Assembly (NCBI GenBank): GCA_016839555.1
Contig: JAEOUA010000007.1
Span: 1-64,000 of the forward strand
DNA length: 64,000 bases
Reading direction: 5' to 3'
Origin: Promethearchaeota archaeon
GTDB taxonomy: Archaea; Asgardarchaeota; Lokiarchaeia; Sigyniarchaeales; SOKP01
The stretch's first letter is position 1. Every line of letters begins with the position of its first letter. The notes beneath the pieces are model-generated. The model saw nothing but the letters and a program-made list of their open reading frames with translations, was not told the DNA's origin and searched no databases. The position numbers and the translations under genes are program-made. Shown piece by piece: positions 3,783 to 26,729 of this stretch.

Positions 3783-4465
3783 TATATTTCCTCTCCATTT
3801 TGATCAAAAATATTGCATAATCTTGCATCAAAAAATTTGATTAAACCTAATTTATTATATAAGAAATAATTGTGAATTTGATATTTTAATGGTAAATTTG
3901 AATTGGTAATTAAATCAAGAAAATTGATTTCAATCTGAGCTCCTTTTTTATTAGAAAGATAGTAAGCATCTAAACCTTCGATATTTTCTTTTTTTACTCT
4001 TTTTCCTTGAATATAATGGAATTCTTCATAAACATTTTGATCTTTCCATTGAAGATCATCTTTCTCTATATTCTCCTCTACACTTTGATCTTGCCTATAT
4101 CTCCAATAAAATCTATTATCAATCCGCCATATATGGATTTCTTTATTTTTATTAAAAAAGCGAGCTTCAAGAAGATAATTTGGCATTAACACTTCATGGA
4201 GTTTCTTTTTTTTCCTAATTTCGTCCAAATAAAAGGTGAATAACTTGACTTTGTGATAGAAATACATTAAAAAATAATTTCTTGAATTATTTTTATCGAC
4301 TAGATCTATAAGATCTTTTGTAATATTTGCTTCTAATTCACTAATTTTACAATTTTGTTTATTTAAAATACAAGATTTTACTGTTTTCACTTTGTTAAAT
4401 TTAAATGTTTTTAAATTTGCTTCTTTATTATTCATATCGATCCCTCCTATTATTATCTTTTCCAT
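3782..4465 (-). CDS. csx19: CRISPR-associated Csx19 (TIGR03984-like); true start probably 4435
   Basis: LLEARFFN..EIHIWR and C-terminal DARL motifs; position between cas7_2x and cas7-insert. Confidence 0.8.
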   Translation of the reverse strand: MEKIIIGGIDMNNKEANLKTFKFNKVKTVKSCILNKQNCKISELEANITKDLIDLVDKNNSRNYFLMYFYHKVKLFTFYLDEIRKKKKLHEVLMPNYLLEARFFNKNKEIHIWRIDNRFYWRYRQDQSVEENIEKDDLQWKDQNVYEEFHYIQGKRVKKENIEGLDAYYLSNKKGAQIEINFLDLITNSNLPLKYQIHNYFLYNKLGLIKFFDARLCNIFDQNGEEI

Positions 4466-5870: not shown

Positions 5871-5899
5871 TATTTTATTGTTTTTACTATTAATTTAAA

Positions 5900-8164: not shown

Positions 8165-8166
8165 AT

Positions 8167-10176: not shown

Positions 10177-10945
10177 TTATGCCTCTAACTTTATATATTT
10201 TTCCACATTACACAGCTTTTTGAGGTTCCTATTCGAGATGCTTGCTCGTTTTAATGCCCTGGTTAAGGCACCTCTAAATTCTTCAAGTGTGCCATAAAAG
10301 GTATTATATACCACCTCTCTCTTAATTTCTCGCCACAACTCTTCAATTTTGCTTAGATCGGGACAATAAGGAGGTAAAAATACTAAATCGAGTTTATCTT
10401 CATGGCGCTCTAAAAGTGGTTGCAACAATTTTGCATGATGAGAGCGGGCATTATCAAGAAAGAGGTAAAGTTTTCCAGAACTCGGATATTCTTTGACAAG
10501 GGCTTGGAGAAATCCCCCAAAATTTTTCGCATTTAAATTGCCAATTTAAGAAAAAAAGCCCTGATCATTAATGGGATCAATTGCTCCGATAACATTTAAT
10601 CATTCTCGTGAGCTGTGTGTGGGAAGGATCGGCGTTGTCCCTTTTATTGCCCATGTTTTATGAGGTGCTCACGAAAGATAAAAGTAATTTTTATCTTCAA
10701 TTAAAATCGTATCGTAAGCTCCGAGATTATTAATTATGTCGATTTTCCGAGCTAAAATTTTTTTTTCTCGGGGGTCCGCTTTCGCGGGCATGGGACAAGG
10801 GACTAATTTCGATAAGTTATTGCGTTTAAGTAAACGATAAATTCCGCTTATCGACAATTCCTTGTCGTATTCCCGCTCCAAATGACCAGAGATTGCCTTT
10901 AGTGTCTATGTATTAAAATCATAGCCCAGTTCTCTCGGGGGGTTG
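10177..10945 (-). mobile_element. Degraded IS630-family transposase
   Basis: LDNARSHH...FLPPYCPDLSKIEELW (DDE C-terminus) and TLKAISGHLEREYDKELSISGIYRLLKR (winged HTH), broken by stops and frameshifts. Confidence 0.85.
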
Positions 10946-11574: not shown

Positions 11575-12579
11575 ATGCCAAAGAAGGATAATGTTTTAAT
11601 AATTTCATTGGGGCGCTCACCTGCAGTTATTCCGGAGACGCTTGATGCATTATTAGAAAAGGATATTTATATAAAAAGAACCTACATAGTCACTACATCC
11701 GATGAAATTATTTACGAAAAGTGTATTCCCCTAATTCAAGAAGATTTTAGGAAGCATTATACACCAAAAAATATGGAATTACATCCATTTCAGTGTATTT
11801 TATCGAGTGATGATATATATAATGAGAGAGATAATCTTGAATTGATGATCAATGTTGCTAAAATATTTAAAAAAGAGCAGAGAAATAATATATTCATCAG
11901 TATGGCAGGCGGAAGAAAAACGATGTCTGCTGCTATGGCATTACTAGCACAAATTTATAATGCTAGAGCGATAACCCATGTATTAGTCTCACCCGAAATA
12001 GAAAAAAAGGGCTCGATTTATAAATTAATGGAATTACAAAATAATGAAATTGAACAAATATTTCATCCGAGAGATAAGCGTTTAATTTTTTTTCCTGTTA
12101 TCGGTATTTCCTGGATGCTTTCTGATATGATAAATGCGTTAAGAGGGACTGAAAATGAGATCATAAGAAAAGAAGTTAGAGAGATTCTTTTTGAAAATGG
12201 ATTATTGGATGAAAATAAGAAACCAACCATTTTAGGAAAACAATTATTAAAGCTGCTTAATGATATTGAAAAATATCCTGAGCCAACTCTGGAAGAACCA
12301 CTAATGAAATTCAAAAAAGATGAATCTCCCCATGCTCCCACAGGATATAATAAATTTGCAGCTCAATTAGCTAATATCCCTTATATTGAAAAAATAATAG
12401 GTGTAAAATTTATTAATTCTCCGGAAACGAGAGTAAATGATGTTACTTCTGATGGTGTTATTAAATGCCAATATTCTGATGGAGATAAAGCATATGTAAT
12501 GAAAATATTAACGACAGCAAAAACAAAGGGCGAGAATGAAATGGTAAAAAAGCTTATCAATCGATATTTCATAAGATAG
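11575..12579 (+). CDS. CARF protein (NE0113/Csx14/Crn1-like) with wHTH and a ~90-aa C-terminal putative effector domain
   Basis: SLGRSPAVIPETL and MAGGRKTMS CARF motifs; LLDENKKPTILGK wing. Confidence 0.8.
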   Translation: MPKKDNVLIISLGRSPAVIPETLDALLEKDIYIKRTYIVTTSDEIIYEKCIPLIQEDFRKHYTPKNMELHPFQCILSSDDIYNERDNLELMINVAKIFKKEQRNNIFISMAGGRKTMSAAMALLAQIYNARAITHVLVSPEIEKKGSIYKLMELQNNEIEQIFHPRDKRLIFFPVIGISWMLSDMINALRGTENEIIRKEVREILFENGLLDENKKPTILGKQLLKLLNDIEKYPEPTLEEPLMKFKKDESPHAPTGYNKFAAQLANIPYIEKIIGVKFINSPETRVNDVTSDGVIKCQYSDGDKAYVMKILTTAKTKGENEMVKKLINRYFIR

Positions 12580-12762
12580 ATTTTTATAGAGCGACCCTCT
12601 TTTAAATCTTAAGAAATATTAAAGAGCTTAAAATTTTCAATGTTATAAGAATTAATTATAACTTTTAACTTTAAATAGTAAATATTAATATGAGAGATTT
12701 TTTTTTAAAAAAAGATCTAATCCTATAAATATCTAATCTAATATTTTGAGTGTGAAAATTTC

Positions 12763-13536
12763 ATGAAAGATGTTTATTTAATGTCCTCTTTGGGTATGTC
12801 GCCTGGGGTTGTCACTGGAGTAATTGACTGCCTCCAATATGAGGATCTAAAGGAGAGATATAATCCGAAGTATATTGCCGTTATTACGACTGATAATGAA
12901 TTAACGAGATTATCATTAGATGTTATAGAAATAGATGTGCAGAAATATAATCCGCATATAGTTATTATCCCATATATTATGAATGGACTTTCTGACATAT
13001 TTAATGAAAAGGATAATGAACGAGTTATGAAAACTTTTGTTGATGCTATAAAAGAAGGCGAGCGCTTTAGATCAAAGGGGGAAATAGATGAGATTCATGT
13101 GAATATAGCAGGTGGAAGAAAAACGATGTCGGGAGTCTTCACTTCCTTATCGAATATTTTTCCAGTGGATAAGGTTTATCATTTATTGACAACGCCTGAG
13201 ATGGAGCGAAAGGGGTTTATAAAAAATTTTCTGAAATCTGATGGAACTGTAGATAAGGAAAAAATTAGTTCGGATGATTTAAAAGTAAATCTTCATCCAA
13301 AAGTGGCGAATGCACCATCAACCTTAGTAGAGATTCCAATTTTACATGCCTTTAACTTTGAACGATTATTGAATTTAACAAGGGAAATAGAAAAACAGAA
13401 TAAGATTAGTGAGTATAATCTTGTTAAAATAATGGTAAGGGAGGAATTTTTAATTAGAGAGGGCAAAAATAGTTATAGTTTTACAAATAAGGGGCGTTTA
13501 CTTTTTAACTTAATTAAATATTATATATCTAAGTAG
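12763..13536 (+). CDS. CARF-wHTH protein; putative ring nuclease (Crn1/Csx14-like) or regulator
   Basis: SLGMSPGVVT and IAGGRKTMS; C-terminal YSFTNKGRLL wing. Confidence 0.78.
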   Translation: MKDVYLMSSLGMSPGVVTGVIDCLQYEDLKERYNPKYIAVITTDNELTRLSLDVIEIDVQKYNPHIVIIPYIMNGLSDIFNEKDNERVMKTFVDAIKEGERFRSKGEIDEIHVNIAGGRKTMSGVFTSLSNIFPVDKVYHLLTTPEMERKGFIKNFLKSDGTVDKEKISSDDLKVNLHPKVANAPSTLVEIPILHAFNFERLLNLTREIEKQNKISEYNLVKIMVREEFLIREGKNSYSFTNKGRLLFNLIKYYISK

Positions 13537-13774
13537 ATATTGAAAAATAAAGAAGATTTTTAGAATATAATAATGGTATATAGAATATGAATTAATAGAA
13601 AAAATTGAATTTTTCTACTCACAAATTTTCCAACTCTCAATAAATAGAAGTAGAAATTTCTCATAATCAAAAAATTAAAATATATTAAAAATATTTTAAA
13701 ACTGAAATATTAATAGCGCAAAAAATTAATAATCGAAATTGTATTAGTTAACTTCAATATATCTAAAGCAAGGC

Positions 13775-15175
13775 TTAATTTTCTGGGTTCAACAGCCATT
13801 TTTTTACTGTTTCAAAATATTCTTCTTTATAATATAGTTCTAATTCATCTTCTTCATTTTTTTTTAATTGGATATAATCTCTCTGAAGTCCACTATGTGC
13901 GAAAAAATTCCTTTTTTCATCTGAAAATGGTGTATTAATCTCTATTTTTTGGTCTTTATTAGTATTTATTAAGTTCCTTAACTCTATTAATTCACCCTCT
14001 TTAATTTTAGATTTATATTTTTCGATATGTTTTAAATCTCTTTCTAAAAACCGTAAGTTTGAGCCCATATCAATTTTCTTATATAATCCTTGGAAAGTAT
14101 TTCTAATGTTAGATATTGTAGGATTTTTCATCATAATTTCTTCATAAAAGTGTTTAAAAGATTGATATAATCCTAGTGTAAACAAGAGATTAACTATACT
14201 TGTTTTTAAACATTTTAATCTATGAATAAAAATTTTATCATCAAATTTTTCTATTTTAGCAGTTTTTTCGATAAATTTATGGACATTCTTTATTTTCTCT
14301 AACTCTTGGTTTATATTTTCCTTATTAGAGTTAAATTCTATTAATTCTTTTGAAAAAAATGCCAATGGAACATTATATTTAATGGCATTAAAGGAGAGTA
14401 ATGTGGTATTTATTATACACCGTGAATTCAAATCTAATTTTGGTGAATTTTTAGCAAGTTTCTCTAAATTATTATTGAAAGCATCTCCATTTGAAAATGA
14501 TATAAGATTATTATTTATATTTAGATTTTTATAAGGAATATCAAAAAAGACCTTAGCTTTATAATCATATATTTCTATAGGAAAAACTTGATCTGGAATC
14601 TGTCCTATTACAGGAGGCACAATCATACATTTCACCTTAAATTCATTTTTATTTTGTAATATATTTTTTAATTTCTTATATACAATTAAGCTTCTAACCG
14701 CTTCGATAAGGGCATGTATATAAATATTGAATCCTGTGGAAATATCTATGATTAATTCTTTTTTAATATCTATTAGATCAATTAAGAATTTTATTATGAT
14801 ATTTTCAATAAAATTATGAAAAGCTAAAATATTATTTGAATTAATTGCACCTTTTTTAATTTCATAGAATCCAATAGATGGTATTATTTTAACTTTAAAT
14901 TCAACGTCTTCTCCTATAATCTTCCTCAATTTTGCCTCGTAAATTTTAATTATTTCTTCTGGAGATTGGTGCAATTTTTTAATGACTGATAAATCCTTAA
15001 TTATTAAGCTTTCAGGTATGAAGAAAAGTATTTTTATTTTTTCATTTTTTAATTTACCATAAGCAACAGAACTAAATTTACAACGAATAATTTGATCTCC
15101 CCCTCTTAACTTATAATTTACATCAGAATAAGTTTGAAAGAGTCCTAATATTTGAACAATAGTTATTTGAGTCAT
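13775..15175 (-). CDS. csx1: Csx1-family CARF-HEPN cOA-activated RNase
   Basis: DISTGFN (DxTHG-like) motif and HEPN RNFFAHSG. Confidence 0.9.
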   Translation of the reverse strand: MTQITIVQILGLFQTYSDVNYKLRGGDQIIRCKFSSVAYGKLKNEKIKILFFIPESLIIKDLSVIKKLHQSPEEIIKIYEAKLRKIIGEDVEFKVKIIPSIGFYEIKKGAINSNNILAFHNFIENIIIKFLIDLIDIKKELIIDISTGFNIYIHALIEAVRSLIVYKKLKNILQNKNEFKVKCMIVPPVIGQIPDQVFPIEIYDYKAKVFFDIPYKNLNINNNLISFSNGDAFNNNLEKLAKNSPKLDLNSRCIINTTLLSFNAIKYNVPLAFFSKELIEFNSNKENINQELEKIKNVHKFIEKTAKIEKFDDKIFIHRLKCLKTSIVNLLFTLGLYQSFKHFYEEIMMKNPTISNIRNTFQGLYKKIDMGSNLRFLERDLKHIEKYKSKIKEGELIELRNLINTNKDQKIEINTPFSDEKRNFFAHSGLQRDYIQLKKNEEDELELYYKEEYFETVKKWLLNPEN

Positions 15176-15464
15176 TTAATTAAATATAGTTATTTTCTTT
15201 TTAAATATTAATCAAATTGAAAATCTAAAATGAAAATAATATCAGATAAACTTATTTTTATACTTTATTTCTGGTTTTTTTTCCTATTAAAAAAGGATCT
15301 AAAGATAATGACAAATATGAATAAATAATTAATGAGATATTTTTATTAAGTATTTCAAATTTTAAAGCAGATCTAGGAAAAAATTCTATGTTATTTTAAA
15401 GCTTAGTAAATAGAATAATATAATAATACTTCTCTTAAAATTACGCTTTTAAAATATATATGAT

Positions 15465-15475
15465 TTTATTAACCT
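15465..15475 (+). promoter_or_regulatory. TATA-like leader motif TTTATTAACCT
   Basis: Same 11-mer at 15465, 20136 and 22059, each 38-43 nt before a CRISPR repeat. Confidence 0.5.
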
Positions 15476-15502
15476 TATTATCATATATAATATATATAAT
15501 AA

Positions 15503-15831
15503 AATAAAGAAAATATAGCTTCAACAAGAAGATTGGAATGTAAATACGATCTTATTCCTGGAAATATAATCAATAATAGCATAGAACGTAGCTTCAATAA
15601 GAAGATTGAAATATAACAATATTAGTAGGATCATCTAGCCAATTACCTATAGCAGAGAATATAGCTTCAATAAGAAGATTGAAATTTGTGATTAATAATT
15701 TGATTAACTAATTTTGGACAAATAGCAGAGAACGTAGCTTCAACAAGAAGATTGAAATTAGAGAAAGGTTCCGAATGCCATGTTCTCAGAAAAAATAGCA
15801 GAGAATATAGCTTCAACAAGAAGATTGGAAT
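15503..15831 (+). CRISPR. Mini-array: 5 variant repeats, four 36-nt spacers
   Basis: Repeats at 15503, 15576, 15649, 15722 and 15795 with an exact 73-bp period; same family as the main array. Confidence 0.95.
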
Positions 15832-16226
15832 ATTAAGTTTAGTAAATAATAAACATTTAGATAGCCGATAAAAATATTATTAAAGGGTGATTTAATGAAA
15901 AGACTAAAAAGTCTAATTCTTCAAATTCAGGTAAAATAACATATGCTGATGGATAAATATTTGAAATATTTATTAAATGAAGAGATATGCTGGAACGAAA
16001 GGAAATTTCGGCGAATTTTCCGATTAATGAAGCATTTAAAGCTATGTTAGGGAGTTATTGATAGGGAAGACATATAAAAAAGAGGTATTACCAAATTACG
16101 ATTAAAATAAGATTTAATGCAGATATCTGAATAGTTTTTAGAAAAAAGAACAAAAATTTAAGCTAAATTTCTAATATTATATTGATTTATAACTCTTATA
16201 ACTCCAGTTTAGTGAAGGTAAAAAAA

Positions 16227-16496
16227 ATGGATATTATAATTTTAAAGAACGAAATTATTGAGTATAAAAAGTTAAAAATTCTTAGTGAAATTACTCTAAT
16301 GAAAGAAAAAATTACTCTTTTTGAAAAGAAGTATGGTTGTACATTAGATGTTTTTAGAACAAGAATAGAAGAATCTGAAGAGAAATTTGAAGAATGGGAT
16401 GATTATATTGAATGGAAAGCCTATTTCGAATCTTTAAAGGATTTAGAAAATAAAGTAATTGAATTAGATAATGCAAAAAATATTAAAATTATTTGA
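16227..16496 (+). CDS. Putative antitoxin of the type found with DUF6516 toxins; partner gene lost
   Basis: FEKKYG..F...EEWDDYIEW pattern; an overlapping ATG at 16471 runs into foreign sequence. Confidence 0.55.
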   Translation: MDIIILKNEIIEYKKLKILSEITLMKEKITLFEKKYGCTLDVFRTRIEESEEKFEEWDDYIEWKAYFESLKDLENKVIELDNAKNIKII

Positions 16497-16670
16497 AAAT
16501 TTAATCGAATTAAATGAAATTCGAACCAATCTAATTAATTCTTTCGTATTCTGACCAAATTTAGGAGCATTTTGACAAATGTCTTTGTAATTTCTTTTGA
16601 ATTAATTAAGATTTGAAAAATCAATTAGATTGTTATTTATATTTAAATTATTATAAGGAAAGTCAAAGAA
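16497..16670 (-). pseudogene. csx1: Fragment of a second csx1 paralog
   Basis: FFDFPYNNLNINNNLIDFSNLN*FKRNYKDICQNAPKFGQNTKELIRLVRISFNSIKF aligns without gaps to Csx1 FFDIPYKNLNINNNLISFSNGDAFNNNLEKLAKNSPKLDLNSRCIINTTLLSFNAIKY. Confidence 0.85.
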
Positions 16671-16989
16671 ATTCAAAGAAATGTCTTTTGGTGATATATT
16701 TACCCCAAAGTCCTTAATCTTTTTTATGAAGTCATTAAATACTTTTTGACAGAAAAATCCCAAATTTAGATTTAGAAATGTCTCATAGAATGTAGAACTT
16801 CCTTTAAATTTGATTTCGATGTTATAAAGAGTACGGCGAGGGGTGATTATAAAAAAATTGAATATTTTGGATAATACGATAATACTCTTAATTTTTGAAA
16901 TCTTTCTGGATTGTCTTTGAAAATTTCCTTGGTTTTATCAAACTCATCAAGAATTACTACGAGTTTAAAATCTGCTTTTTTGACATTTT

Positions 16990-17584
16990 AAAATTTTCTA
17001 ACTTAGCCAAGAAAAGCCCCTTATTATTCCACGTTTCTTTCGATTGGGGATCAATTTCAAGTGCTTTATCATAACATTCAAAAGCATCTTTATACTTTTT
17101 TAGGGCTATTAAAGCATGCCCTTTATTATACGTTGCTCATCTATATTGTTGGTCAATTGCAAGCGCTTTATTATAACATTCGATAGCAGCTTCTTGTTTT
17201 CCTACCTTGGTTAATACTATTCCTTTATTATTCTAAATTTCCTTGGATTTTGAATCGAGTTCAAGCGCATCATCATAGCATTCAATGGCAGCTTAATCCC
17301 TACTTAATTTAGCCAGCGTCATTGCTTTATTATACCAAGCTTCTTTGGTATTTGGGTTGATTTTAAGAGCTTTATCAAAGCATTTGATGGCTTTTTTAAA
17401 GTTTCCTAAGTTATTTAATGCAACTCCTTTATAGATCCAAGCTTTATAAGCGTTTGGATTAATATTAAGAGCCTTATCAAAGCATTCAATGGCTTTCTTA
17501 TACTCTCCTAATTCAAATAAGGGCGCTCCATTATTGATCCAATCCTTCTCGAGAGATGTCATAATCTTATCTTCATTTTTCCAT
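16990..17584 (-). pseudogene. TPR-repeat protein pseudogene
   Basis: TPR units (AIECFDKAL, AWYNKA, NNKGIVL, AFECYDKALEIDP) continue past several stops. Confidence 0.85.
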
Positions 17585-18002
17585 AATTATCCCCTTAGTT
17601 TGGAGTCTTCGCTTCACTTCTAATAATTTCTCTTTCCTCTTCCTTTGAAATATGGTTATTAATAAGAAAACGTTATATAAAAAGAGTTCTCTTTTGCCCA
17701 ACTGTCTGGAATTGTTGCTAATTTCAATCTTTATCGGATAAAAAATCTTGATATCATTAGATTATATCTAAAAATTATTTAAAAAAAGAATGTTCATTTA
17801 AGATTATTGGAAATACTTCTGGAATAGAGCATTTAGAAAAATACTTACTCTCAAGTGAAGAACTTACTGTACAAGAATTAAGATAATTGAATCCAGAAGA
17901 TAATAAAATTTTAGATCCCCAGAAATTAATCCAATTAAAAAATCAAATGATGATTTACAATATTTTTTGAAAATTACATAATAATAATATCATGATCATT
18001 CT

Positions 18003-18404
18003 TTAATTAGATTTATTTGACTGAAATCTATAATTCATTGAAAATAAATTACCAGATTTATATAATTTACATAATAAAGGAATATCGTGTTCCGGCTCTC
18101 CGATCATATTGCTTTTATATCCTTCTTTTAAATCTCTAGGATGAAAATGATGCGGTCTAGTGGAAATATTCCATCTATCATCATAATTATCAAACCTACA
18201 TCTATCTAATTTAATTTTAGAAAAGATTATTGAATAACTATATTCGCCATAATCATTATATTGAATGAAAATGAGATTCCTATCTCTTAATCGAATCTTG
18301 ATTCTTGATAATTTAGGTTGAAAAAATAATTCTTCGATTGAATCACCAAAATGTCTTTCTATTATTTCTTTAGCATTTTTTAATTTTTGTTCATGAACCG
18401 ACAA
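18003..18404 (-). CDS. DUF6516/TumE-like toxin
   Basis: YSYS..RFDNYDDRW..STRPHHFH resembles the DUF6516 RWDN..PHHxH motif. Confidence 0.6.
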   Translation of the reverse strand: MSVHEQKLKNAKEIIERHFGDSIEELFFQPKLSRIKIRLRDRNLIFIQYNDYGEYSYSIIFSKIKLDRCRFDNYDDRWNISTRPHHFHPRDLKEGYKSNMIGEPEHDIPLLCKLYKSGNLFSMNYRFQSNKSN

Positions 18405-18422
18405 AGTACGAGCTCCTTGTAT

Positions 18423-18668
18423 TTACTTGTTTGAATTCCAATCTTGTTTCATTTGGTACGTCTCATCTCTTTCTTTCAATAACTGTCTTAACGTAATTGC
18501 ATCGGGTTCAGCTTCTTCTATTGTACCATCTCTTGCATGTTGTAAAAACAGCTCAGGATTCGTATAATCCCATTTCGTTAGAATTTTGTCAATTTCCCGA
18601 TTAAGAAATCTGAGTTTGTAATCTATAAGTTCTTCCAAGGTTTCTCTCTTTACTCGAATCATGGTCAT
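18423..18668 (-). CDS. Putative cognate antitoxin
   Basis: 81-aa helical protein immediately upstream of the toxin-like gene. Confidence 0.55.
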   Translation of the reverse strand: MTMIRVKRETLEELIDYKLRFLNREIDKILTKWDYTNPELFLQHARDGTIEEAEPDAITLRQLLKERDETYQMKQDWNSNK

Positions 18669-18939
18669 TTTTTAATTTTACTTACTTAAATATGTTAAAA
18701 TTAAAATAAATACTTATATAGAAATATAATTATTTTAAATTCTTTCAAACTAATAATAATTCTCCAAGCATAAATATCTATTCCTCCAAGTTATTCAAAT
18801 TATCCTTTGTTATTCATTGATACTAACATAATTTCAAGATTTACTGGACTTGTAAGAAATATTAATTTCTTAACTAACCTAGATTAAAGGTTATATTTTT
18901 TGTAAGAAGAGAAAAATAAAAAAGATATAGAAAAGAATA

Positions 18940-19517
18940 ATGAGTAAAAATTTAAAATATCTAGATACATCATCTATAATATTATCTGACATCAATTTAC
19001 CCAATGAATCAATTCTATATGAATATCGTAATCTTTCCGCTATTTCAACAAAAAAAGATATTCATTAATAAAAAATGATGAATCATCCACTCAAAAATTT
19101 GCTTTTCAGGAATATTATGAATCCTCTAAATTAGAAGAACTATCTAAAAATTCATATAAACCAAATATAACTTTTAATGATAATATTAAAGATGAAATGT
19201 ATCAAAAAGAGACCTTTTTGAGATTTATTAGCGAAATCGAGAGGTGTTTGTTAATTTTTGCTAACTTCTATAAGATATCATTTAATGCAGAAATACATTT
19301 TCAGCAAGACTGGGAAGTTAAAGATGTAAAAAATATTATCCTTCAACTTAAAGTTTTTAATATTTCCTTTAAAGAGGAGTTGTTTATTTGGAAACAATTA
19401 TCTCATTTTATTAGAAAAGTTTTAAAGATGTTTGAATTCAATTCTATTTCTGAAGAAGAATTGGATGATTATATAAATTATAATAAAGATTTCTATATTA
19501 AAATAAATTTAGAATAG
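18940..19517 (+). pseudogene. Hypothetical HEPN-partner gene split by a frameshift in an A7 run (19050-19056)
   Basis: The ATG-18940 frame stops after STKKDIH; adding one A joins it to the 19197-19517 frame. Confidence 0.55.
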
Positions 19518-19526
19518 GAGATTTTT

Positions 19527-19907
19527 TTGGCATCTAATTTTAACCCAGAATTATTCCTTGATATAGCGAAAAAATTATTGAATATAGAAAATTTGGATGA
19601 AAAAGGTAAATTTAGAACCTCGATAGGGAGGGCTTACTATTCTGCTTTTTTATTGGTTAGAATTAAATTAGAAAGAAAAGGAAAAAGATTTGGTACTGAA
19701 GCTCAGCATAAAGAAGTTAGGGACTTTTTAAAAATTATTCTTATAAAATTTTTAGCTGATCTTTTAAAAGCGTTGTTTGATTATCAAGTAGATGCTGATT
19801 ATTATCTTACTAAATCTGTTAATAAATTAATCAATCGGGAGCTCTGTGAGAGATGTATTACAATCGCGGAGGAGATTATAAATAATATCAATGTAATATC
19901 ATCATAA
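19527..19907 (+). CDS. HEPN-domain protein (UPF0332-like)
   Basis: RTSIGRAYYSAF, H.EV and xVDADY motifs. Confidence 0.8.
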   Translation: MASNFNPELFLDIAKKLLNIENLDEKGKFRTSIGRAYYSAFLLVRIKLERKGKRFGTEAQHKEVRDFLKIILIKFLADLLKALFDYQVDADYYLTKSVNKLINRELCERCITIAEEIINNINVISS

Positions 19908-20211
19908 AAACTGTTAAATAGTTTAATTTTATTTCTTACTAAGAAATTTGAAATTAATGAAAGTTCAGGTAAGATTGGAATCTTAATTATTTTTAAAGTA
20001 ATTTAATATAATCTACTTTTTAAGAAACATCAGCAGTTCTTATAAATAGCAAAAAAGATAATAGCAAAAAAATAACTTTTTTAGAAAATTGAAAATATTT
20101 TATTACATATATTTTTCCCTTAAATTATTTATAACTTTATTAACCTCTGTTACTAAATATAATATAGAATATAAGAGAGAAAGAATATAACTTCAACGAG
20201 AAGATTGAAAT
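19646..20211 (+). repeat. Copy 1 of a ~560-bp direct duplication (HEPN 3' part, leader, CRISPR repeat)
   Basis: Highly similar to 21583-22138. Confidence 0.95.
20175..20211 (+). CRISPR. Solitary degenerate CRISPR repeat
   Basis: GAGAGAAAGAATATAACTTCAACGAGAAGATTGAAAT, 29/37 to consensus; hairpin stem and handle intact. Confidence 0.85.
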
Positions 20212-20387
20212 TCATTCCAGAAAATATTATATATTGAATTTAATTCCACTAAAAATTTACTCTTGATCTTGATTAAATCCTTCCAATTAAAAGTTAAAGA
20301 AAAAGTTTTAAAATAATAAAAATAAATATTCCTTCTAAATTTAAATACTTATATCTATTTACATAATTTAAAGAAGCAATTTAATTT

Positions 20388-20843
20388 TTGAGCTATAATA
20401 TGAAAAGACCTCAATATGATTTAATTTCAATTGAAGATCTAAAACAAAAAGTAAATCAAATTTTTCAAAATCATAGTGAAATAATTATTGCATATTTATT
20501 TGGATCTTATGCTCAAGGATATCAAACTAAATTTAGTGATATTGATTTGGGAATTGTTTTAGAAGAAGATTTCAAAGAACCCTCCCTTTATTTTGCTCAA
20601 TTAAGTTATAAAATCGAAAAAGCGTTTAATTGGCGAGTAAATGTTGAGGTTAGAATATTAAATAAATGTTCTCCTAGGTTCCTATTCCAAGTAATAAAAT
20701 ATGGGAAAATTATTTACTGCAAAAATTCTAACTTCAAAGATGAATTTGAATTAAAAGTAATTACTCAATATATTGATATTAAACCGTTATTAAATTATTT
20801 TGATAATCTTTTTCTCAGAAAGGTTTATGGGGATGAGAGTTAA
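20388..20843 (+). CDS. mntA: MntA-type minimal nucleotidyltransferase antitoxin
   Basis: YLFGSYA...SDIDLGI (GSx10DxD). Confidence 0.9.
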   Translation: MSYNMKRPQYDLISIEDLKQKVNQIFQNHSEIIIAYLFGSYAQGYQTKFSDIDLGIVLEEDFKEPSLYFAQLSYKIEKAFNWRVNVEVRILNKCSPRFLFQVIKYGKIIYCKNSNFKDEFELKVITQYIDIKPLLNYFDNLFLRKVYGDES

Positions 20844-21276
20844 TCCAGATGTAATAATAAAACGCTTTGAATATCTTAATAAGTTATTAGAAGAATTAGA
20901 AAGCATCAGAAAAATTACAAAAGATGAATTTTTAAATAATTTTTCAACAATTTTAGGGGCCGAGAGAGCTTTAGTATTATCCACCAACATTTGCATAGAT
21001 ATTGGAGCACATATTTTATCAATAAATGATGTTAGCAAACCTGAAACTTATAGTGAAATATTTGAAGATTTAATGAAATTAAATATTATAGATAAGGAGA
21101 TCGAGGAAAGTTTAATTAAATTCGTTGGTTTGAGGAATTTACTCGGTCATTTATATACAAAAGTAAATAATGAGAGGGTTTATAATATTATTCAAGAAAA
21201 TTTGTCTGTTTTTTATTCTTTTAAGAATCAGATTCTAATGAAATTCAAAGATCAATTAAAAAAGAACAATGAATAA
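20833..21276 (+). CDS. hepT: HepT/DUF86 HEPN RNase toxin
   Basis: RNLLGHLY (Rx4HxY); overlaps the mntA stop. Confidence 0.9.
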   Translation: MRVNPDVIIKRFEYLNKLLEELESIRKITKDEFLNNFSTILGAERALVLSTNICIDIGAHILSINDVSKPETYSEIFEDLMKLNIIDKEIEESLIKFVGLRNLLGHLYTKVNNERVYNIIQENLSVFYSFKNQILMKFKDQLKKNNE

Positions 21277-21582
21277 ATATTGAATTCAATAAATTTATTT
21301 TTAATTCTTTCTCCGTTTGCCAAAAGTGAATCCAAATTTTTCAGAATAATAAATATTTAAGCTAATATAGAATCAATATCTTAGGGAAACTCTTCTCTTG
21401 TTATTTTTTAAAAATCAAATGAGGTTGTTATATTATTTAGTTCTCTTGCTTTTCTGCATGCAAATCCATAATCATATGTATTCTTTTTAAACTTTTAGTT
21501 TGAAGTATTGAAAGAGCTTTCTATTTATAAAGTATTGAAGAAAGTTTTATAAGAATGTTGGTGGAGAGAATCAGATTAAAAA

Positions 21583-22138
21583 TTTTTTATTGGTTAGAAC
21601 TTTATTAGGGAGAAAAGGAAAAAATTTTGGCACTGAAGCTCAACATAAAGAAGTTAGGGACTTTTTAAAAATTATTCTTATAAAATTTTTAGCTGATCTT
21701 TTAAAAGCGTTGTTTGATTATCGAGTAGATGCTGATAATTATCTTACTAAATCTGTTAATAAATTAATCAATCGGGAGCTCTGTGAGAGATGTATTACAA
21801 TCGCGGAGGAGATTATAAATAATATTAAAGTAATAGCATCATAAAAACTGTTAAATAGTTTAATTTTATTTTTTTACTAAGAAATTTGAAATTATTGTAA
21901 GTTCATGTAAGATTGGAATCTTAAATATTTTTAAAGTAATTTAATATAATCTACTTTTTAAAAAATATCAGCAGTTCTTATAAATAGCAAAAAAATAAAT
22001 TTTTTAGAAAATTGAAAATATTTTATTATATATATTTTTCCCTCAAATTATTTACAACTTTATTAACCTCTGTAACTATATTATACTATATATATAATAA
22101 GATAGCAAAGAATGTAGCTTCAACAAGAAGATTGAAAT
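21583..22138 (+). repeat. Copy 2 of the ~560-bp duplication; includes a 5'-truncated HEPN pseudogene at 21590-21844
   Basis: Highly similar to 19646-20211. Confidence 0.95.
22102..22138 (+). CRISPR. Solitary perfect CRISPR repeat
   Basis: 37/37 to the main-array consensus; no second repeat follows. Confidence 0.97.
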
Positions 22139-22435
22139 ATGTTATCATCGTAAGAGGTTAAGAATAAATTATTATATCAATATATTGTAGGGGGGCTTTA
22201 AATGTTCTAATTTTTTTTTCATCGAGAAATTTAAACATATTAAAAATTTAAATAAAAGTTAAAATAGGTTCTAAATCATTCTAATATAAATTGAAAATGA
22301 GAAGATTAAATTATAAATCAAAAAAGATTATCAATTAATAGCGAAAGAATTAATTTGATTTACAAAATAAAAATTTTTTGGATAAATTACTAAACAAAAT
22401 ATTATACGTAAGGGTAAATAATAAAGAGGAATTAT

Positions 22436-22720
22436 ATGACAAATATTGAAGAGATAAAGAAAAAAGTCATTCCAATTTTACAACATCATGGAGTTAAAAG
22501 GGCAGGGTTATTTGGTTCGTTTGTTAGGGGGGAAATGAAAGAGGATAGCGATATTGATATATTAGTAGAGATTGAGGAAGATATTAGTTTACTTGATTTT
22601 ATAGGTATTAAATTGGAGATCGAGGAAGTATTGAGAAGAAAAGTGGATTTAGTGGAATATAGTACAATTAAACCACTTCTTAAAGAAAGAATATTAAGTG
22701 AACAAGTGGAGATTCTATGA
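22436..22720 (+). CDS. mntA: Minimal nucleotidyltransferase antitoxin
   Basis: [20 protein letters not shown]. Confidence 0.92.
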
Positions 22721-23070
22721 AAAGGAATATAACGGTTTATATTGAAGATATCTTAGATAGCATTAAAAAAGTAGATGAATATACAAAAAATATTACTGAA
22801 CAGAATTTCTATAAAAATACGCAAGTCCAAGATGCTATTTTGAGACGATTAGAAATCATAGGCGAAGCAGTAAAGAAAATCTCTCAGGAATTTAGAGATA
22901 AATATCCAGAAATCCCTTGGAAACAGATTGCAGGAATGCGAGATATTCTTATTCACCAATATTTTGGAGTAAATTTAAAGCGAACTTGGAAGGTTATTAT
23001 AGAAGATATTTTTGATTTGAAGAACAAAATGCTAAAAGTGAAAAAAGATCTTGATGAAAACAAATGCTAA
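22717..23070 (+). CDS. hepT: HepT/DUF86 toxin
   Basis: [27 protein letters not shown]; ATGA overlap with mntA. Confidence 0.92.
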
Positions 23071-23238
23071 TAAGATATTCTTTATTTCTTTAATTGAAAT
23101 TGCTTGACAATCGTTTTTTTAGATAAGAGATAGTTATTCAATTAGGAATCGCCCCGTGGGTATTAAACAATAAAACTACTCACTTAAGATGCTTTATTCT
23201 TTTTTCTTTATTAATTTAGCTTTTATTTTTATTTTAAA

Positions 23239-23348
23239 GTAACAGAGAATTTAGCTTCAACAAGAAGATTGAAATACAAAAGCAAAAAAATCTAAATGAA
23301 GATAATCTTCTATAGCACAGAATATAGCTTCAACAAGAAGATTGAAAT
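23239..23348 (+). CRISPR. Mini-array: 2 variant repeats, one 36-nt spacer
   Basis: Repeats 23239-23275 and 23312-23348. Confidence 0.93.
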
Positions 23349-23398
23349 GATGTTTTTGTGAGATAGGAATTTATAATTTATTAAATAATCAAATTTAA

Positions 23399-23884
23399 AT
23401 GTTCAAATGCAGTTTATATAATAGGATGGAAGAAAATAATAAGAAACCTATAGATAATAAAAGACTTGAACGTTACATTGAGAAATTAGAGCATTTCAAC
23501 AAATTAGCGGAGAGGCTCGATAATTGGACAGAAGAGGTTGGCGAAAAAGGATTTCTAGCTTTGGATTTGAAAGATCAATTTGCAATTTATCATGCGTTTC
23601 AAATAATAATTGAAATAATAACCGATTTAATTGCAATGACCGTTAAGGATTTAAAGATTAAACCAACAGACGACTATACGAATATCATACATTTAAAGGA
23701 ACAAAACTTCCTAACCGAAGAATTGACTGAAAGTTTAAGGAAGCTAAATGGGTTAAGAAATGTTATAGTTCATGATTATAATGGAATTGATGAATTATTA
23801 GTGTACAGAGGAATAAAAGAGAATTTCCATTTTATTAAACAATTTTATAAGGTGATGCGAGAATGGTTGCAGAACAAATATTAA
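23399..23884 (+). CDS. hepT: HepT/DUF86 toxin (start probably 23426)
   Basis: GLRNVIVHDY. Confidence 0.88.
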   Translation: MFKCSLYNRMEENNKKPIDNKRLERYIEKLEHFNKLAERLDNWTEEVGEKGFLALDLKDQFAIYHAFQIIIEIITDLIAMTVKDLKIKPTDDYTNIIHLKEQNFLTEELTESLRKLNGLRNVIVHDYNGIDELLVYRGIKENFHFIKQFYKVMREWLQNKY

Positions 23885-24264
23885 AACAGATTAGACGAGA
23901 TTTTATGCCCATTCTTAAAAAAAAGAATGTATTAGGGTTAATTTTATTTGGATCCCATGTCAATGAAACGCAAACCAATCGGAGTGATATAGATCTCTGC
24001 GTAGTAGCGCCTGAAGAGGATCCATTTGAGCTCTATTCTCTTTTTTCGATAAAAATTGACTTATTTTCAAAACAGTATGATATCAAATTTTTTTCAGAAT
24101 TACCACTTTATCTACAAATAAGAGTTATAGAAGATGGTATCATAGTTTATTCCACAGATGAGTTAGAATTATACGAATATTTTTATCATTTCCGAAAGTT
24201 ATGGACAGATCAGAAGCACCGGCAGCAACTCTCTAGGGAAGAAATGCTCTCTCTATTGGAATAA
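23863..24264 (+). CDS. mntA: Nucleotidyltransferase antitoxin (toxin-first gene order)
   Basis: ILFGSHV...RSDIDLCVV. Confidence 0.88.
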   Translation: MVAEQILKQIRRDFMPILKKKNVLGLILFGSHVNETQTNRSDIDLCVVAPEEDPFELYSLFSIKIDLFSKQYDIKFFSELPLYLQIRVIEDGIIVYSTDELELYEYFYHFRKLWTDQKHRQQLSREEMLSLLE

Positions 24265-24484
24265 AGGAAAAATATTAGGATTTTCTAAAAAAACTTAATT
24301 TTATCCAATAAATTAAAAATTATTTAAGTTATAAAATTAAATTTCTTTTTTGAGAAACAAGTTCGAATCGGAATAAATACATTATGCGAGAGCAGGGCTA
24401 GAACCATCGGATATTGTCTAATGCCAGAACTCTGCATTTGGGAGTATTAATCCATCATTCTTTCGGGTGTGGTAGTTTAAATAA

Positions 24485-24521
24485 ATAGCTGAAAATTTTC
24501 CTTTATATAGAAGATTGAAAT
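24485..24521 (+). CRISPR. Solitary degenerate CRISPR repeat
   Basis: ATAGCTGAAAATTTTCCTTTATATAGAAGATTGAAAT, 27/37; exact length with both ends conserved. Confidence 0.7.
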
Positions 24522-24713
24522 ATAAAAACAAGTATCAAATTTTTGAATTTTAATCAAATGATAACAGAAGATTATGTAAACAATACTCGATACTGCTCTT
24601 TATTAAATAAGTTTAATATAAATTTCAAAATATAAAATGTATTTATATAATGAAGTTATGTGTTAATAATGACAAGAGATAATGTTAAATATTTATTTTT
24701 CTTACTAGAAAGT

Positions 24714-24935
24714 ATGAATGTTGGAAAAATAAGTAAGAAGGGTCAAATTGTGATACCTAAAGAAATTAGGGAACGATTCGGGATAATGCCTGGTGATGCG
24801 CTTATTTTCAAGATTCAAGATGATAAAATAATAATAGAAAAGATCCAGCAGAAAATGTCGGAGATTTTAATGAATAGCAAACCCATAGAAAATAGCCTTG
24901 ACTTTCAAAGAAAACTTCGTGGGGAATGGGAATGA
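24714..24935 (+). CDS. vapB: AbrB/MazE-family antitoxin
   Basis: KISKKGQIVIPKEIRERFGIMPGD. Confidence 0.9.
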   Translation: MNVGKISKKGQIVIPKEIRERFGIMPGDALIFKIQDDKIIIEKIQQKMSEILMNSKPIENSLDFQRKLRGEWE

Positions 24936-25351
24936 AAGTAAATCTTGATACTAATATTTTTATTGCTGTTAAAAATCAGGAATCACATTTTGAATATTGT
25001 AAAAAAATTCTTGATGAAATTGAAAATAAAAAATTTGATGCGGTAATGTCTACAATAGTATTTATGGAAGTTCTTGTGGGGTTTTTTCAAAATAATGAGC
25101 AAATCGAAGCAAATAAATTCGCTAGCAACGCAATACTTAATTATAAATTAATTTCTGTGGACCATGAAATCGCACGCAGAGCGGCTAATATAAGGGCTCA
25201 GTATAAGATTAAACTTCCAGATGCGATAATTTCTGCTACGACTCTTCTTTCTGAATGTGATTTTTTTATTACCAAAAATAAGCCTTTATTAAAAAAATTA
25301 AAAATTCATAAGATCACTCCAAAAACGTTTGTAGAGGAATATATTAATTAA
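24932..25351 (+). CDS. vapC: PIN-domain VapC toxin
   Basis: LDTNIFI, E, LPDAIISAT. Confidence 0.9.
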   Translation: MKVNLDTNIFIAVKNQESHFEYCKKILDEIENKKFDAVMSTIVFMEVLVGFFQNNEQIEANKFASNAILNYKLISVDHEIARRAANIRAQYKIKLPDAIISATTLLSECDFFITKNKPLLKKLKIHKITPKTFVEEYIN

Positions 25352-25627
25352 ATCTCAATTCCGACTTAAAAAATTTTTTTAAAATCAAAATTTCTTCTAT
25401 ATGTGTTATATTTTCCATTTATCTCATATTTATAGTCTAAAATTATTATATTATCAATAATATTAAAAAAGTATTTGAATAATAATTAAAATAATAATAC
25501 TTCTTTCTATTGAATAAAAAAAAGATGATATTCGCTTATGAAGTTAATGCCTATTAATCCTTGATTATATATGTTTCAAAATAACTGAGCCATTATTTGC
25601 CGATATAGGTTTAGCTATTATAGTTCA

Positions 25628-25831
25628 TTGCGCCTATGTGTTATTTTTAAAATTAAGCAGGAAATCCCTACTTTTTGTCGTACGCTGGAAAAATTTATAC
25701 AAGAAAGTTTTTATAATTTTGTTAGAAATCCAATATATCTTTCTTGGATACCAGTCTTCTTACTTTTGATTGAAAATATCGCCCGTTGGATCTTGATTAA
25801 AGCATTATTAACTCCCATATCAAACTTTTAA
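25628..25831 (+). pseudogene. Possible remnant of an ICMT/PEMT-family methyltransferase
   Basis: Only the FYNFVRNPIYLSW motif supports this. Confidence 0.3.
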
Positions 25832-25921
25832 GCCAAACAATTAATGCCATCAGATTTTTTAATATTAAAGACTATAATTATATCAATTATATAGTATTTA
25901 AAAAACAAGTGATGTAAAATA

Positions 25922-26128
25922 ATGCCAGTTGTTGATGTTAAAGTATGGAAAGGTATTTCAGAAGATATTATAAAAAAGATTATAAGTGGTATAACTAATG
26001 TATTTGTAGATCTTGGTATTCCAAAGCAAGCAGTAGAGGTAATAATACAAGAAATTCCTAAAAAACATTGGGGGATTGAGGGAAAGCCTGCAACAGAATC
26101 TCGCCCAGACGCCGTCCCACCTAAGTAA
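25922..26128 (+). CDS. 4-oxalocrotonate tautomerase family protein
   Basis: N-terminal Pro, VEVIIQEIPKKHWGIEG, 68 aa. Confidence 0.9.
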   Translation: MPVVDVKVWKGISEDIIKKIISGITNVFVDLGIPKQAVEVIIQEIPKKHWGIEGKPATESRPDAVPPK

Positions 26129-26243
26129 ATCTTTTGATTAAGAAATTCTTTTTAGATTCACTTGCCCTTCTTATTCTTTACGAAGAACAGGGATTTGCGG
26201 TGATTGAGTTAAAGGGTGGCTGATAAATATTGTTATATTATTC

Positions 26244-26546
26244 TTATTCTTCCTTTTTTTCTTCAATTATTAATTTAGCTGTTGCCATCCAAATAATAAA
26301 AAAGACTATTCCATTTGAAATTGATGAAATAACACTATCTAAGAGGGTCCATTGAAATATCAAATGGAAAATTAGTCCCATAATAACTTGAACTGCCAAG
26401 TATAATAATCCAGTAACTACAAAAATCTTCTTTTTTTTCATCATATATATTATAAATTGGAAAGGTGATTTATTAAATTTTAAAAAAAATTCAACTATTT
26501 CTGTAATAAATTCACAAAAATTTTTTATGTAAAATATTTGTATCAA
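26244..26546 (-). CDS. Small membrane protein (start likely at MMKKKK)
   Basis: Two hydrophobic helices. Confidence 0.5.
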   Translation of the reverse strand: MIQIFYIKNFCEFITEIVEFFLKFNKSPFQFIIYMMKKKKIFVVTGLLYLAVQVIMGLIFHLIFQWTLLDSVISSISNGIVFFIIWMATAKLIIEEKKEE

Positions 26547-26558
26547 AACTTAATAAAA

Positions 26559-26669
26559 GTAGCAGAGAACAAAGCATCAACAAGAAGATTGAAATTTTTA
26601 CTAGGTATATGGTACCAAGAGACTATCCAAATAATAGCAAATACAATAGCTTCAATAGAACATTGAAAT
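26559..26669 (+). CRISPR. Mini-array: 2 degenerate repeats, one 38-nt spacer
   Basis: Repeats 26559-26595 and 26634-26669. Confidence 0.85.
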
Positions 26670-26729
26670 TTACAACCGGGAAAAAAATTATATATTCTCT
26701 TTAATCTGAGCTATTTATTTTGAAATTGC

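Follow-up and report, generated by a model that had tools for sequence, protein, structure and literature searches.

The window, a stretch of 64,000 nucleotides at the start of one contig (C6) of an Asgard (Loki-like) archaeon, appears to hold the trailing flank of a type III-D CRISPR-Cas locus. The contig begins inside the main CRISPR array. The 37-nt repeat of this array recurs between 15.5 and 26.7 kb in 12 copies, all on the + strand and grouped in six clusters, among toxin-antitoxin (TA) modules. The features of the region are:

5-1378, + strand: main CRISPR array, 19 copies of the 37-nt repeat, 36-41-nt spacers
About 1416-1450: decayed terminal repeat after the main array
1899-9861, - strand: type III-D effector genes (TIGR03986 RAMP, Csx19, RAMP fusion, Csx10-like RAMP fusion, short Cas10)
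11575-15175: CARF/csx1 block, two NE0113-type CARF genes (+) and csx1 (-)
15300-15831, + strand: second array, AT-rich leader, then five repeats (15503-15831) with four 36-nt spacers
18003-18668, - strand: TumE-like toxin and 81-aa partner, between clusters 1 and 2, no repeat upstream
19197-19907, + strand: 106-aa ORF of unknown family, then a HEPN (PF05168) gene, between clusters 1 and 2
19646-20211, + strand: duplication copy 1, with the 3' part of the HEPN gene, a leader and a solitary repeat (20175-20211, its 8 mismatches confined to the 5' 24 nt)
20400-21276, + strand: cassette A, MntA-HepT (Pfam; intact motifs)
21321-21351, + strand: short remnant resembling an MntA 5' end (family D11), recognised by inspection of the sequence
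21583-22138, + strand: duplication copy 2, with a truncated HEPN fragment (21590-21844), a leader and a perfect solitary repeat (22102-22138)
22436-23070, + strand: cassette B, MntA-HepT (Pfam)
23239-23348, + strand: repeat-spacer-repeat unit, no recognisable leader
23426-24264, + strand: cassette C, HepT-MntA, toxin first (Pfam)
24485-24521, + strand: degenerate solitary repeat, 27/37 positions matched, 10 mismatches within the 5' 24 nt, 3' 13 nt intact
24714-25351, + strand: cassette D, AbrB/MazE-type antitoxin and PIN toxin (Pfam; ORF open from 24660)
25628-26546: 67-aa ORF, tautomerase and 100-aa ORF (the last on the - strand), none a TA gene
26559-26670, + strand: closing unit, repeat, 38-nt spacer and terminal repeat with a deletion

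Besides the type III-D cas genes, the window contains csx1 and, in all, three CARF genes. The leader of the second array contains a ATTAACCT motif. This is a real array, because its position matches that of a 3-repeat mini-array in the related contig G002:C64, which adjoins orthologous CARF genes, and because one of its spacers, the third, has a match in a gene at another place in the genome. The closing unit has the look of the trailer end of an array. Full leaders are present in three clusters of the window and are conserved within the genus.

All 12 copies reported by the sequence-only reading were re-located, with starts at 15503, 15576, 15649, 15722, 15795, 20175, 22102, 23239, 23312, 24485, 26559 and about 26634. 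It had also seen no repeats at the TA modules at 31 kb and 50 kb, and the PIN genes there (31.4 kb and 50.8 kb) indeed have no repeat nearby. In the 3.74-Mb assembly the repeat is confined to positions 1-26.7 kb of C6. Matches to the 23-nt 3' part of the repeat number 29 in the window, and 100 shuffles gave none. Two copies are weak, the one at 24485 and the one at 26634 (1-nt deletion plus mismatches); the copy at 22102 matches the main-array repeat exactly. Among the dispersed copies of the window the 3' 13 nt are near-constant (2 changes in 11 copies) and most mismatches fall in the 5' 24 nt, unlike at true array ends, where decay affects the 3' half. The 3' handle reads AUUGAAAU. The constancy of the 3' 13 nt fits ongoing selection or a very recent origin better than plain decay, which counts against the reading favoured below. 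The repeat hairpin has only 4 bp and is no better than in shuffled sequence. No attC-like imperfect palindrome was found, and a search of the viral contig collection did not find the repeat.

Five of the clusters had been described as lying upstream of a TA gene or module. Four of these modules, cassettes A to D, are confirmed by Pfam; the supposed orphan antitoxin that follows the first cluster (16182-16496) was matched by neither Pfam nor NCBIfam, and its label therefore stays unverified. From the end of the repeat to the likely start codon the distances for cassettes A-D are about 190, 297, 77 and 190 nt. All TA modules of the window downstream of a repeat cluster share the orientation of the repeats, a regularity that also weighs against the favoured reading. 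The RxxxxH motif is kept in 3/3 HepT and GSx10DxD in 3/3 MntA proteins, and the mutual identity of the three pairs is just 27-35%. Being intact and mutually divergent, the cassettes were probably acquired independently. Three of the genome's eight HepT loci are found within about 3.5 kb of the island.

Close homologues occur elsewhere without repeats. The nearest paralogue of cassette B is on contig C5 (68% nucleotide identity), cassette C has a counterpart in G001:C450 (77%, with about 45 nt of upstream DNA conserved), cassette D has one in G002:C20 (79%, upstream DNA conserved), and the TumE-like pair has one in G001:C371. For cassettes C and D the shared upstream DNA ends well short of the repeat. 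Judged by their sequences, the cassettes are autonomous, since their catalytic motifs are intact, their own promoter-proximal DNA is conserved and close homologues exist at repeat-free loci.

The window contains a 566-bp duplication (19646-20211 and 21583-22138). Its copies are 92-95% identical, the homology ends exactly at the 3' end of the repeat, and each copy is followed by a different cassette. The MntA-like remnant at 21321-21351 is recombination debris. In the relative G008:C75 another duplication stops some 10-15 nt short of a repeat cluster, and one of two duplicated ParE cassettes of G008 has no repeat after it. Two related species have a common junction inside a repeat. These data show that the segments were joined by untidy recombination, with several junctions at or inside repeats. 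Breakpoints at repeat edges are commoner than random illegitimate recombination predicts, an observation that counts against the reading adopted below.

Alternation of repeats and TA cassettes is seen in two genera of the same Asgard family. In G008:C75, a 6.8-kb contig, four TA cassettes are interleaved with four repeat clusters, together with a non-TA XPB-Bax1 pair. Repeat-TA adjacency is also found in G004:C38, G006:C100, G012:C192, G020:C36, and G043:C3 with G049:C190. In G006:C100 the repeat and a cassette-C-type module adjoin a housekeeping gene, far from any cas gene. Orientation varies in the relatives: the AbrB-PIN module of G008 and the MntA-HepT module of G012 run against the repeats, and in G043 and G049 the repeat follows the cassette instead of preceding it. 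The dispersed repeats of G049:C190 have mutated 3' handles, so some dispersed repeats are decaying. Across the family none of 30 HepT loci has a repeat within 1.5 kb, and only 4/19 cassette-C-type loci do. No identical or near-identical cassette flanked by repeats was found at two places. Repeat-bounded gaps contain TA modules in 5/5 cases in the window and in 3/9 gaps examined in relatives, against about 3% expected for a random 3-kb segment, a rough estimate that takes the TA loci to number about 40 in 4 Mb, by extrapolation from the HepT and PIN counts. The link between repeats and TA modules is non-random but optional.

The sequence-only reading had suggested that Cas6 couples the TA genes to the CRISPR status of the cell, in the manner of CreTA. 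In such coupling, transcription from the leaders would continue across the repeats and into the TA genes, and cleavage by Cas6, or uptake of the repeat-tagged RNA by the type III complex, would tie TA expression to the CRISPR state. Co-orientation in the window, the conserved leaders of three clusters and the conserved 3' handle of the dispersed copies agree with this, and a precedent exists in the CRISPR-repressed toxins of type I systems (PMC9458426), which include a protein-toxin variant (doi 10.1101/2024.01.05.574328). CreTA loci likewise have degenerate or ectopic repeats near a toxin gene within a CRISPR locus, but CreA has a spacer complementary to the toxin promoter and acts through type I Cascade; the system of the island is of type III-D and has a protein antitoxin for each toxin, and complementarity of its spacers and post-repeat segments to TA genes and promoters is not above chance. 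Cas6 was not found in the assembly with the PF01881 profile or a relative's Cas6-like protein as query. Together with the weak hairpin, the reversed or repeat-preceding modules of relatives and the upstream DNA that cassettes keep where repeats are missing, this makes such coupling very improbable, and the suggestion found no support. It is improbable as well that TA modules and the remains of decayed arrays coincide by chance in one defence island and are causally unrelated. TA modules as well as CRISPR loci are known from such islands, which in archaea include clustered MNT-HEPN pairs beside CRISPR-cas (PMC3710099). The window shares with them varied, autonomous and mobile MntA/HepT, PIN and other TA pairs clustered beside cas genes; their usual description, by contrast, mentions neither CRISPR repeats interleaved with the modules nor recombination junctions at the edges of repeats. 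Mini-arrays flanking type III loci are mostly judged degraded and non-functional (Shmakov et al. 2023, doi 10.1101/2023.03.03.530964). As in that survey, the island has repeat-like copies and 2-repeat mini-arrays near a type III array, with no detectable targets. Its copies, however, span 11 kb, three come with a full leader, and another species has one of the mini-arrays at the corresponding position; alternation with TA cassettes is not reported in the accessible portion of that survey. The excess of TA modules in the gaps and the placement of several junctions at repeat edges argue against coincidence.

A further proposal of that reading was that the repeats act as recombination sites at which TA operons accumulate as cassettes; it is supported in a weak form. 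Repeat-mediated exchange of cassettes is possible though unlikely: the repeats would be portable homology, so that homologous recombination could carry a repeat-flanked TA cassette from one array, genome or mobile element to another and build up an integron-like array that needs no integrase. The exact end of the duplication at the repeat with different cassettes beyond it, the near-coincident end in G008:C75, the junction common to two species, the alternation in two genera and the isolated unit of G006:C100 are in its favour. Solitary repeat units on mobile elements have been proposed to recombine with host arrays and drive integration into them (Faure et al. 2019, reviewed in PMC8616872); these resemble the single repeats outside arrays seen here, but the island shows no hallmarks of mobile elements and the repeat was not found in the viral contigs. 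Exchange is also opposed by the missing case of one cassette at two repeat-flanked places, the repeat-free state of most homologous cassettes, the unaccompanied ParE cassette, the truncated genes that come with the leader-repeat unit and the shortness of a 37-nt homology arm. Several observations speak against the ordered, integron-like form of the proposal. Integron and superintegron arrays consist of small co-oriented cassettes, many of them TA modules, split by a recurring short sequence. The island shares this arrangement, but no integrase was found, nor Cas1 in the assembly, an attC-like imperfect palindrome is missing, each cassette brings promoter-like DNA upstream of its genes, and the junctions contain gene fragments. 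Insertion of kilobase TA DNA as giant spacers at a leader-proximal repeat, by Cas1-Cas2 or a casposase-like relative that duplicated the repeat each time, is hardly credible. The series that starts with the leader at 21845 and closes with the decayed terminal repeat at 26634 does read as a single array, in which 6 repeats enclose "spacers" of 1100, 36, 1136, 2037 and 38 nt and cassette borders lie at repeat ends. Nevertheless, Cas1 was not found in the assembly, and several of the flanking repeats have lost their 5' end or have other sequence in its place, where a clean duplication would be expected. The prespacers that Cas1-Cas2 measures are about 30-40 bp long, and we know of no reported kilobase insertions into arrays. 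In Clostridioides difficile, type I TA modules directly adjoin CRISPR arrays (PMC5961336); these are bacterial modules with RNA antitoxins beside arrays, whereas the island has protein TA pairs alternating with repeats.

The favoured reading, held at a rough probability of 0.55, is that a secondary array and duplicated leader-repeat units were broken up by independently acquired TA cassettes. The island would then consist of the second array, two leader plus single-repeat units and array remnants ending in a typical decayed terminal repeat, with three MntA/HepT pairs, the AbrB-PIN pair, the TumE-like pair and the HEPN pair between them. The repeats would be ordinary CRISPR repeats, processed still or until recently, and would have no regulatory role in the TA modules. 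Arrays that are short, transcribed, dispensable and prone to recombination may serve as landing and exchange sites, where addiction modules probably persist longer than other inserts because their loss by repeat-repeat recombination would be penalised. The overall picture suggests selfish cassettes that collect at an array prone to recombination, and not a new coupled system. Retention of the cassettes by addiction would incidentally stabilise the locus, and, as the comparison with integrons and superintegrons suggests, TA cassettes could stabilise the array.

The adjacency of CRISPR repeats and toxin-antitoxin (TA) modules between 15.5 and 26.7 kb, here called the island, is not due to chance: the arrangement is real, recurs and is statistically non-random. 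Each of the window's five gaps bounded by repeats holds TA modules, and three of the genome's eight HepT loci fall in the island. The CRISPR-Cas locus and the island are composed as follows.

5-1378, + strand: main CRISPR array of 19 identical 37-nt repeats (3' end ATTGAAAT), with a decayed terminal repeat after it
1899-9861, - strand: type III-D effector genes (TIGR03986 RAMP, Csx19, RAMP fusions, short Cas10)
10177-10428, - strand: DDE_3 transposase fragment of 83 aa, between cas10 and the CARF genes
Beyond the effector genes and the transposase fragment: two NE0113-type CARF genes and csx1
15503-15831, + strand: proper small array of five repeats with 36-nt spacers
16600-17600, - strand: five 102-nt tandem units (34-codon, TPR-like) among short, broken ORFs
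20175, 22102 and 24485, + strand: solitary repeats
23239/23312 and 26559/26634, + strand: repeat pairs
20.4-21.3 and 22.4-23.1 kb: MntA-HepT modules
23.4-24.3 kb: HepT-MntA module
24.7-25.4 kb: AbrB-PIN module

The assembly (G000) comprises 3.74 Mb in 12 contigs and is 92% complete; the window covers the initial 64 kb of contig C6, whose start falls within the main array. The effector genes form a type III-D set of Cas10, Csx19, a Csx10-like protein and a fused Cas7-type RAMP, with TIGR03984 (Csx19) and TIGR03986 scores above the cut-offs and Csx10 and Cas10 matches below them. Neither Cas6 (searched with PF01881 and with a relative's Cas6-like protein) nor Cas1 (PF01867) was found in this 92% complete assembly, in which the contig starts inside the array, despite the 19 perfect repeats. 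The genes for processing and adaptation may sit on sequence preceding the start of the contig, or the type III-D system may borrow them. In the relative G001 (contig C467, locus L031) a 158-aa ORF of no known family (1354-1830) is flanked by a 16-repeat array and a 2-repeat cluster, and a Cas6-like gene (PF10040, 2335-3228) comes after it. A genome-wide k-mer scan for further arrays returned the main array alone, and Rfam gave no match within the window. The genome also encodes several full-length actin homologues (best E-value 4e-134), which identifies the host as an Asgard archaeon.

All 12 dispersed copies listed by the sequence-only reading were recovered, every one on the + strand, and the 3' 23-mer of the repeat is matched 29 times in the window and not once in 100 shuffles. 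The repeat is not scattered through the genome: it is absent from the rest of the 3.74-Mb assembly outside this region. In GTDB species genomes it was found in one other archaeal MAG, besides chance single matches; JGI metagenome contigs gave single matches only, probably by chance, and a viral contig collection gave none. Both 5-1378 and 15503-15831 contain at least three near-identical direct repeats of 23-50 nt with unique spacers of similar length, and cas genes are close by. The solitary copies fall short of a canonical array and the two pairs are minimal ones. Related AT-rich leaders with a common ATTAACCT...TATA-like end precede 15503, 20175 and 22102, this end being 81% identical in a relative (G004:C287), and no leader was found upstream of 23239, 24485 or 26559. 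Taken from the second leader onwards, the sequence reads like one six-repeat array that closes with the indel-bearing terminal repeat at 26634 and has gaps of 1100, 36, 1136, 2037 and 38 nt. In another relative (G002:C64) a 3-repeat mini-array follows orthologous CARF genes, a position equivalent to that of the 15503 cluster.

The repeat handle is AUUGAAAU. Among the window copies the 3' 13 nt are nearly invariant and mismatches fall mostly in the 5' 24 nt, the opposite of true array-end decay. Such a pattern is consistent with copies that function as CRISPR repeats or did so until recently, and also with junctions that replaced the 5' part of a repeat. In G049:C190 the 3' handles of the dispersed copies are mutated, which marks them as relics at least in that genome. 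No further decayed repeats consisting of the 5' half only were found downstream of the solitary copies at up to five errors. The repeat hairpin was rejected as a conserved structure: its 4-bp stem has a z-score of -0.05, no better than shuffles, and is disrupted in the copy at 26559. Spacer 3 of the small array (15686-15721) matches G000:C7:194604-194639 (L097:8605-8640) at 32-33 of 36 positions, within a gene for a 333-aa TFIIB-like paralogue adjoining a canonical TFB. As predicted from the match, its crRNA would be complementary to the TFIIB-like mRNA, the correct sense for type III.

Pfam searches confirmed the TA modules that had been read from the sequence. Three pairs combine PF01934 with PF18765/PF01909, the HepT/MntA (type VII) composition, and retain intact RxxxxH (HepT) and GSx10DxD (MntA) motifs. 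They are mutually only 27-35% identical, which points to separate acquisitions. The fourth module (PF04014 and PF01850, 24660-25351) is VapBC-like, with an AbrB/MazE-fold antitoxin overlapping the PIN toxin. Between the first two repeat clusters lie a TumE-like pair (- strand) and a pair of an unknown protein and a HEPN protein. The ORF at 16182-16496, earlier taken for an orphan antitoxin, matched no family. The tandem units at 16600-17600 are probably a decayed TPR gene within the island.

Dispersed repeats often adjoin TA pairs in relatives of the same family as well, as the following loci (genome:contig) illustrate.

G004:C38: DUF433 and DUF5615 pair near a dispersed repeat
G006:C100: housekeeping oxidoreductase gene, a solitary repeat 28 nt past it, then two HEPN/MNT pairs
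G008:C75: four repeat clusters alternating with three ParD-ParE and one AbrB-PIN cassettes over 6.8 kb, beside an XPB-Bax1 pair
G012:C192 and G020:C36: further repeat-TA adjacencies
G043:C3 (L105) 640-676 and G049:C190 (L102) 10346-10382: solitary repeat in which other sequence replaces the 5' 14 nt

The last two loci come from two species of one genus. In both, the MntA stop of a HepT-MntA cassette is followed, after about 10 nt, by the 5'-truncated repeat, whose 3' handle one species keeps intact and the other has mutated. In G008 the end of a duplicated ParE cassette lies about 10-15 nt before a repeat cluster. Two ParE genes of this locus (L015, 149-430 and 3033-3314, - strand) are 92% identical, each with a single in-frame stop at a codon common to both; the ParD partners are intact. 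The stop may reflect a pseudogene state common to the two genes, or a site of read-through. The G006 solitary repeat was considered as a specific orthologue of the 23312 copy, and this was dropped, since at its 5' end it is more like the mini-array variant of G002. No empty site for the G006 island was definable by comparison with this genome, as synteny is too eroded.

Although the adjacency is non-random, most of the evidence indicates that the repeats are not part of the TA modules. No repeat was found near the homologues of the HepT-MntA cassette (G001:C450, 77% nucleotide identity), the AbrB-PIN cassette (G002:C20, 79%) or the TumE pair (G001:C371). Similarity to these repeat-less homologues covers the genes and an upstream block of about 45 nt for HepT-MntA and about 70 nt for AbrB-PIN, blocks that end well short of the repeat. 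Of 30 HepT loci drawn from the family, one from each genome, not one lies within 1.5 kb of a repeat; of 19 loci of the HepT-MntA cassette type, only the four in G000, G006, G049 and G043 do. Contig G001:C450 (L108) ends, in its last 40 nt, in an 18-nt tandem repeat directly after the MntA stop, which differs from the CRISPR repeat.

These homologues also bear on the proposal that Cas6 processing of repeat-bearing transcripts couples the TA genes to CRISPR, as in CreTA. In CreTA a creA spacer is partly complementary to the toxin promoter or 5' region, and the toxin, which has no protein antitoxin, is repressed by a DNA-binding type I effector; the island spacers have no such complementarity, each toxin is paired with a cognate protein antitoxin, and the effector is type III-D. 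Spacers and post-repeat segments did not match TA genes or promoters beyond chance, also by BLAST: for each mini-array spacer and each 37-mer following a repeat, exact identity within 15-27.5 kb extends over 9-12 nt at most, inside the shuffled range (95th percentile 11-14 nt). Orientation varies in relatives, with two TA modules opposed to the repeats and the repeat downstream of the cassette in G043 and G049. With Cas6 not found in the 92% complete assembly, the coupling proposal gained no support.

The second proposal, that repeats are integration or recombination sites gathering TA operons as giant spacers in an integron-like array, survives only as a weaker version, through homologous recombination with junctions at or inside repeats. 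The units at 20175 and 22102 are parts of a 566-bp duplication whose copies are 92-95% identical. It begins within a HEPN gene, leaving a truncated HEPN copy (21590-21844), and runs precisely to the repeat's 3' end, with an unrelated cassette after each copy; a short MntA remnant lies at 21321-21351. Against the stronger form, no integrase was found among the ORFs scanned and no Cas1 in the 92% complete assembly, and most homologues lack the repeat. Among selected ORFs of at least 50-90 aa in 1.9-38 kb there was no recombinase domain, and the transposase fragment was the sole mobile-element piece. Integrons have promoterless cassettes and structured sites, whereas the HepT-MntA and AbrB-PIN cassettes keep conserved upstream DNA and the repeat stem has only 4 bp. 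Exact-protein look-ups revealed no strain variation: they returned nothing, or contigs that break at the repeats and match the window at 100% identity. The population is present in the public runs SRR14699978 and SRR14699980.

The simplest account is that the flank of a CRISPR array was colonised by autonomous TA cassettes, and that recombination, often at or inside repeats, would shuffle leader-repeat units and cassettes. The addiction modules would then persist as their loss through repeat-repeat recombination would be penalised. In a published survey, mini-arrays adjoin 10-14% of type III loci and are judged degraded (doi 10.1101/2023.03.03.530964). It has also been proposed that solitary repeats recombine with host arrays (reviewed in PMC8616872). 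No description of TA cassettes alternating with CRISPR repeats was found in the literature searched. Most probably the arrangement represents a variant on defence-island and degraded-array biology that is already known, and not a new system. It is unlikely that the repeats double as exchange sites, at which repeat-bounded TA cassettes are captured, swapped between arrays and between genomes, and kept, forming an integrase-free integron-like TA array that shields the CRISPR locus from repeat-repeat loss; such a system might add Cas6-dependent release of TA transcripts.

Its recurrence in several genera makes the question accessible to comparative genomics and transcript mapping. If the repeats merely mark a recombination-prone, dispensable spot, the island is a neat case of selfish TA cassettes on a CRISPR flank and a caution against assigning function to stray repeats. 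If they truly promote cassette capture or exchange, TA modules would have a new route of mobility and CRISPR loci a new mode of stabilisation, in the archaeal lineage closest to eukaryotes.
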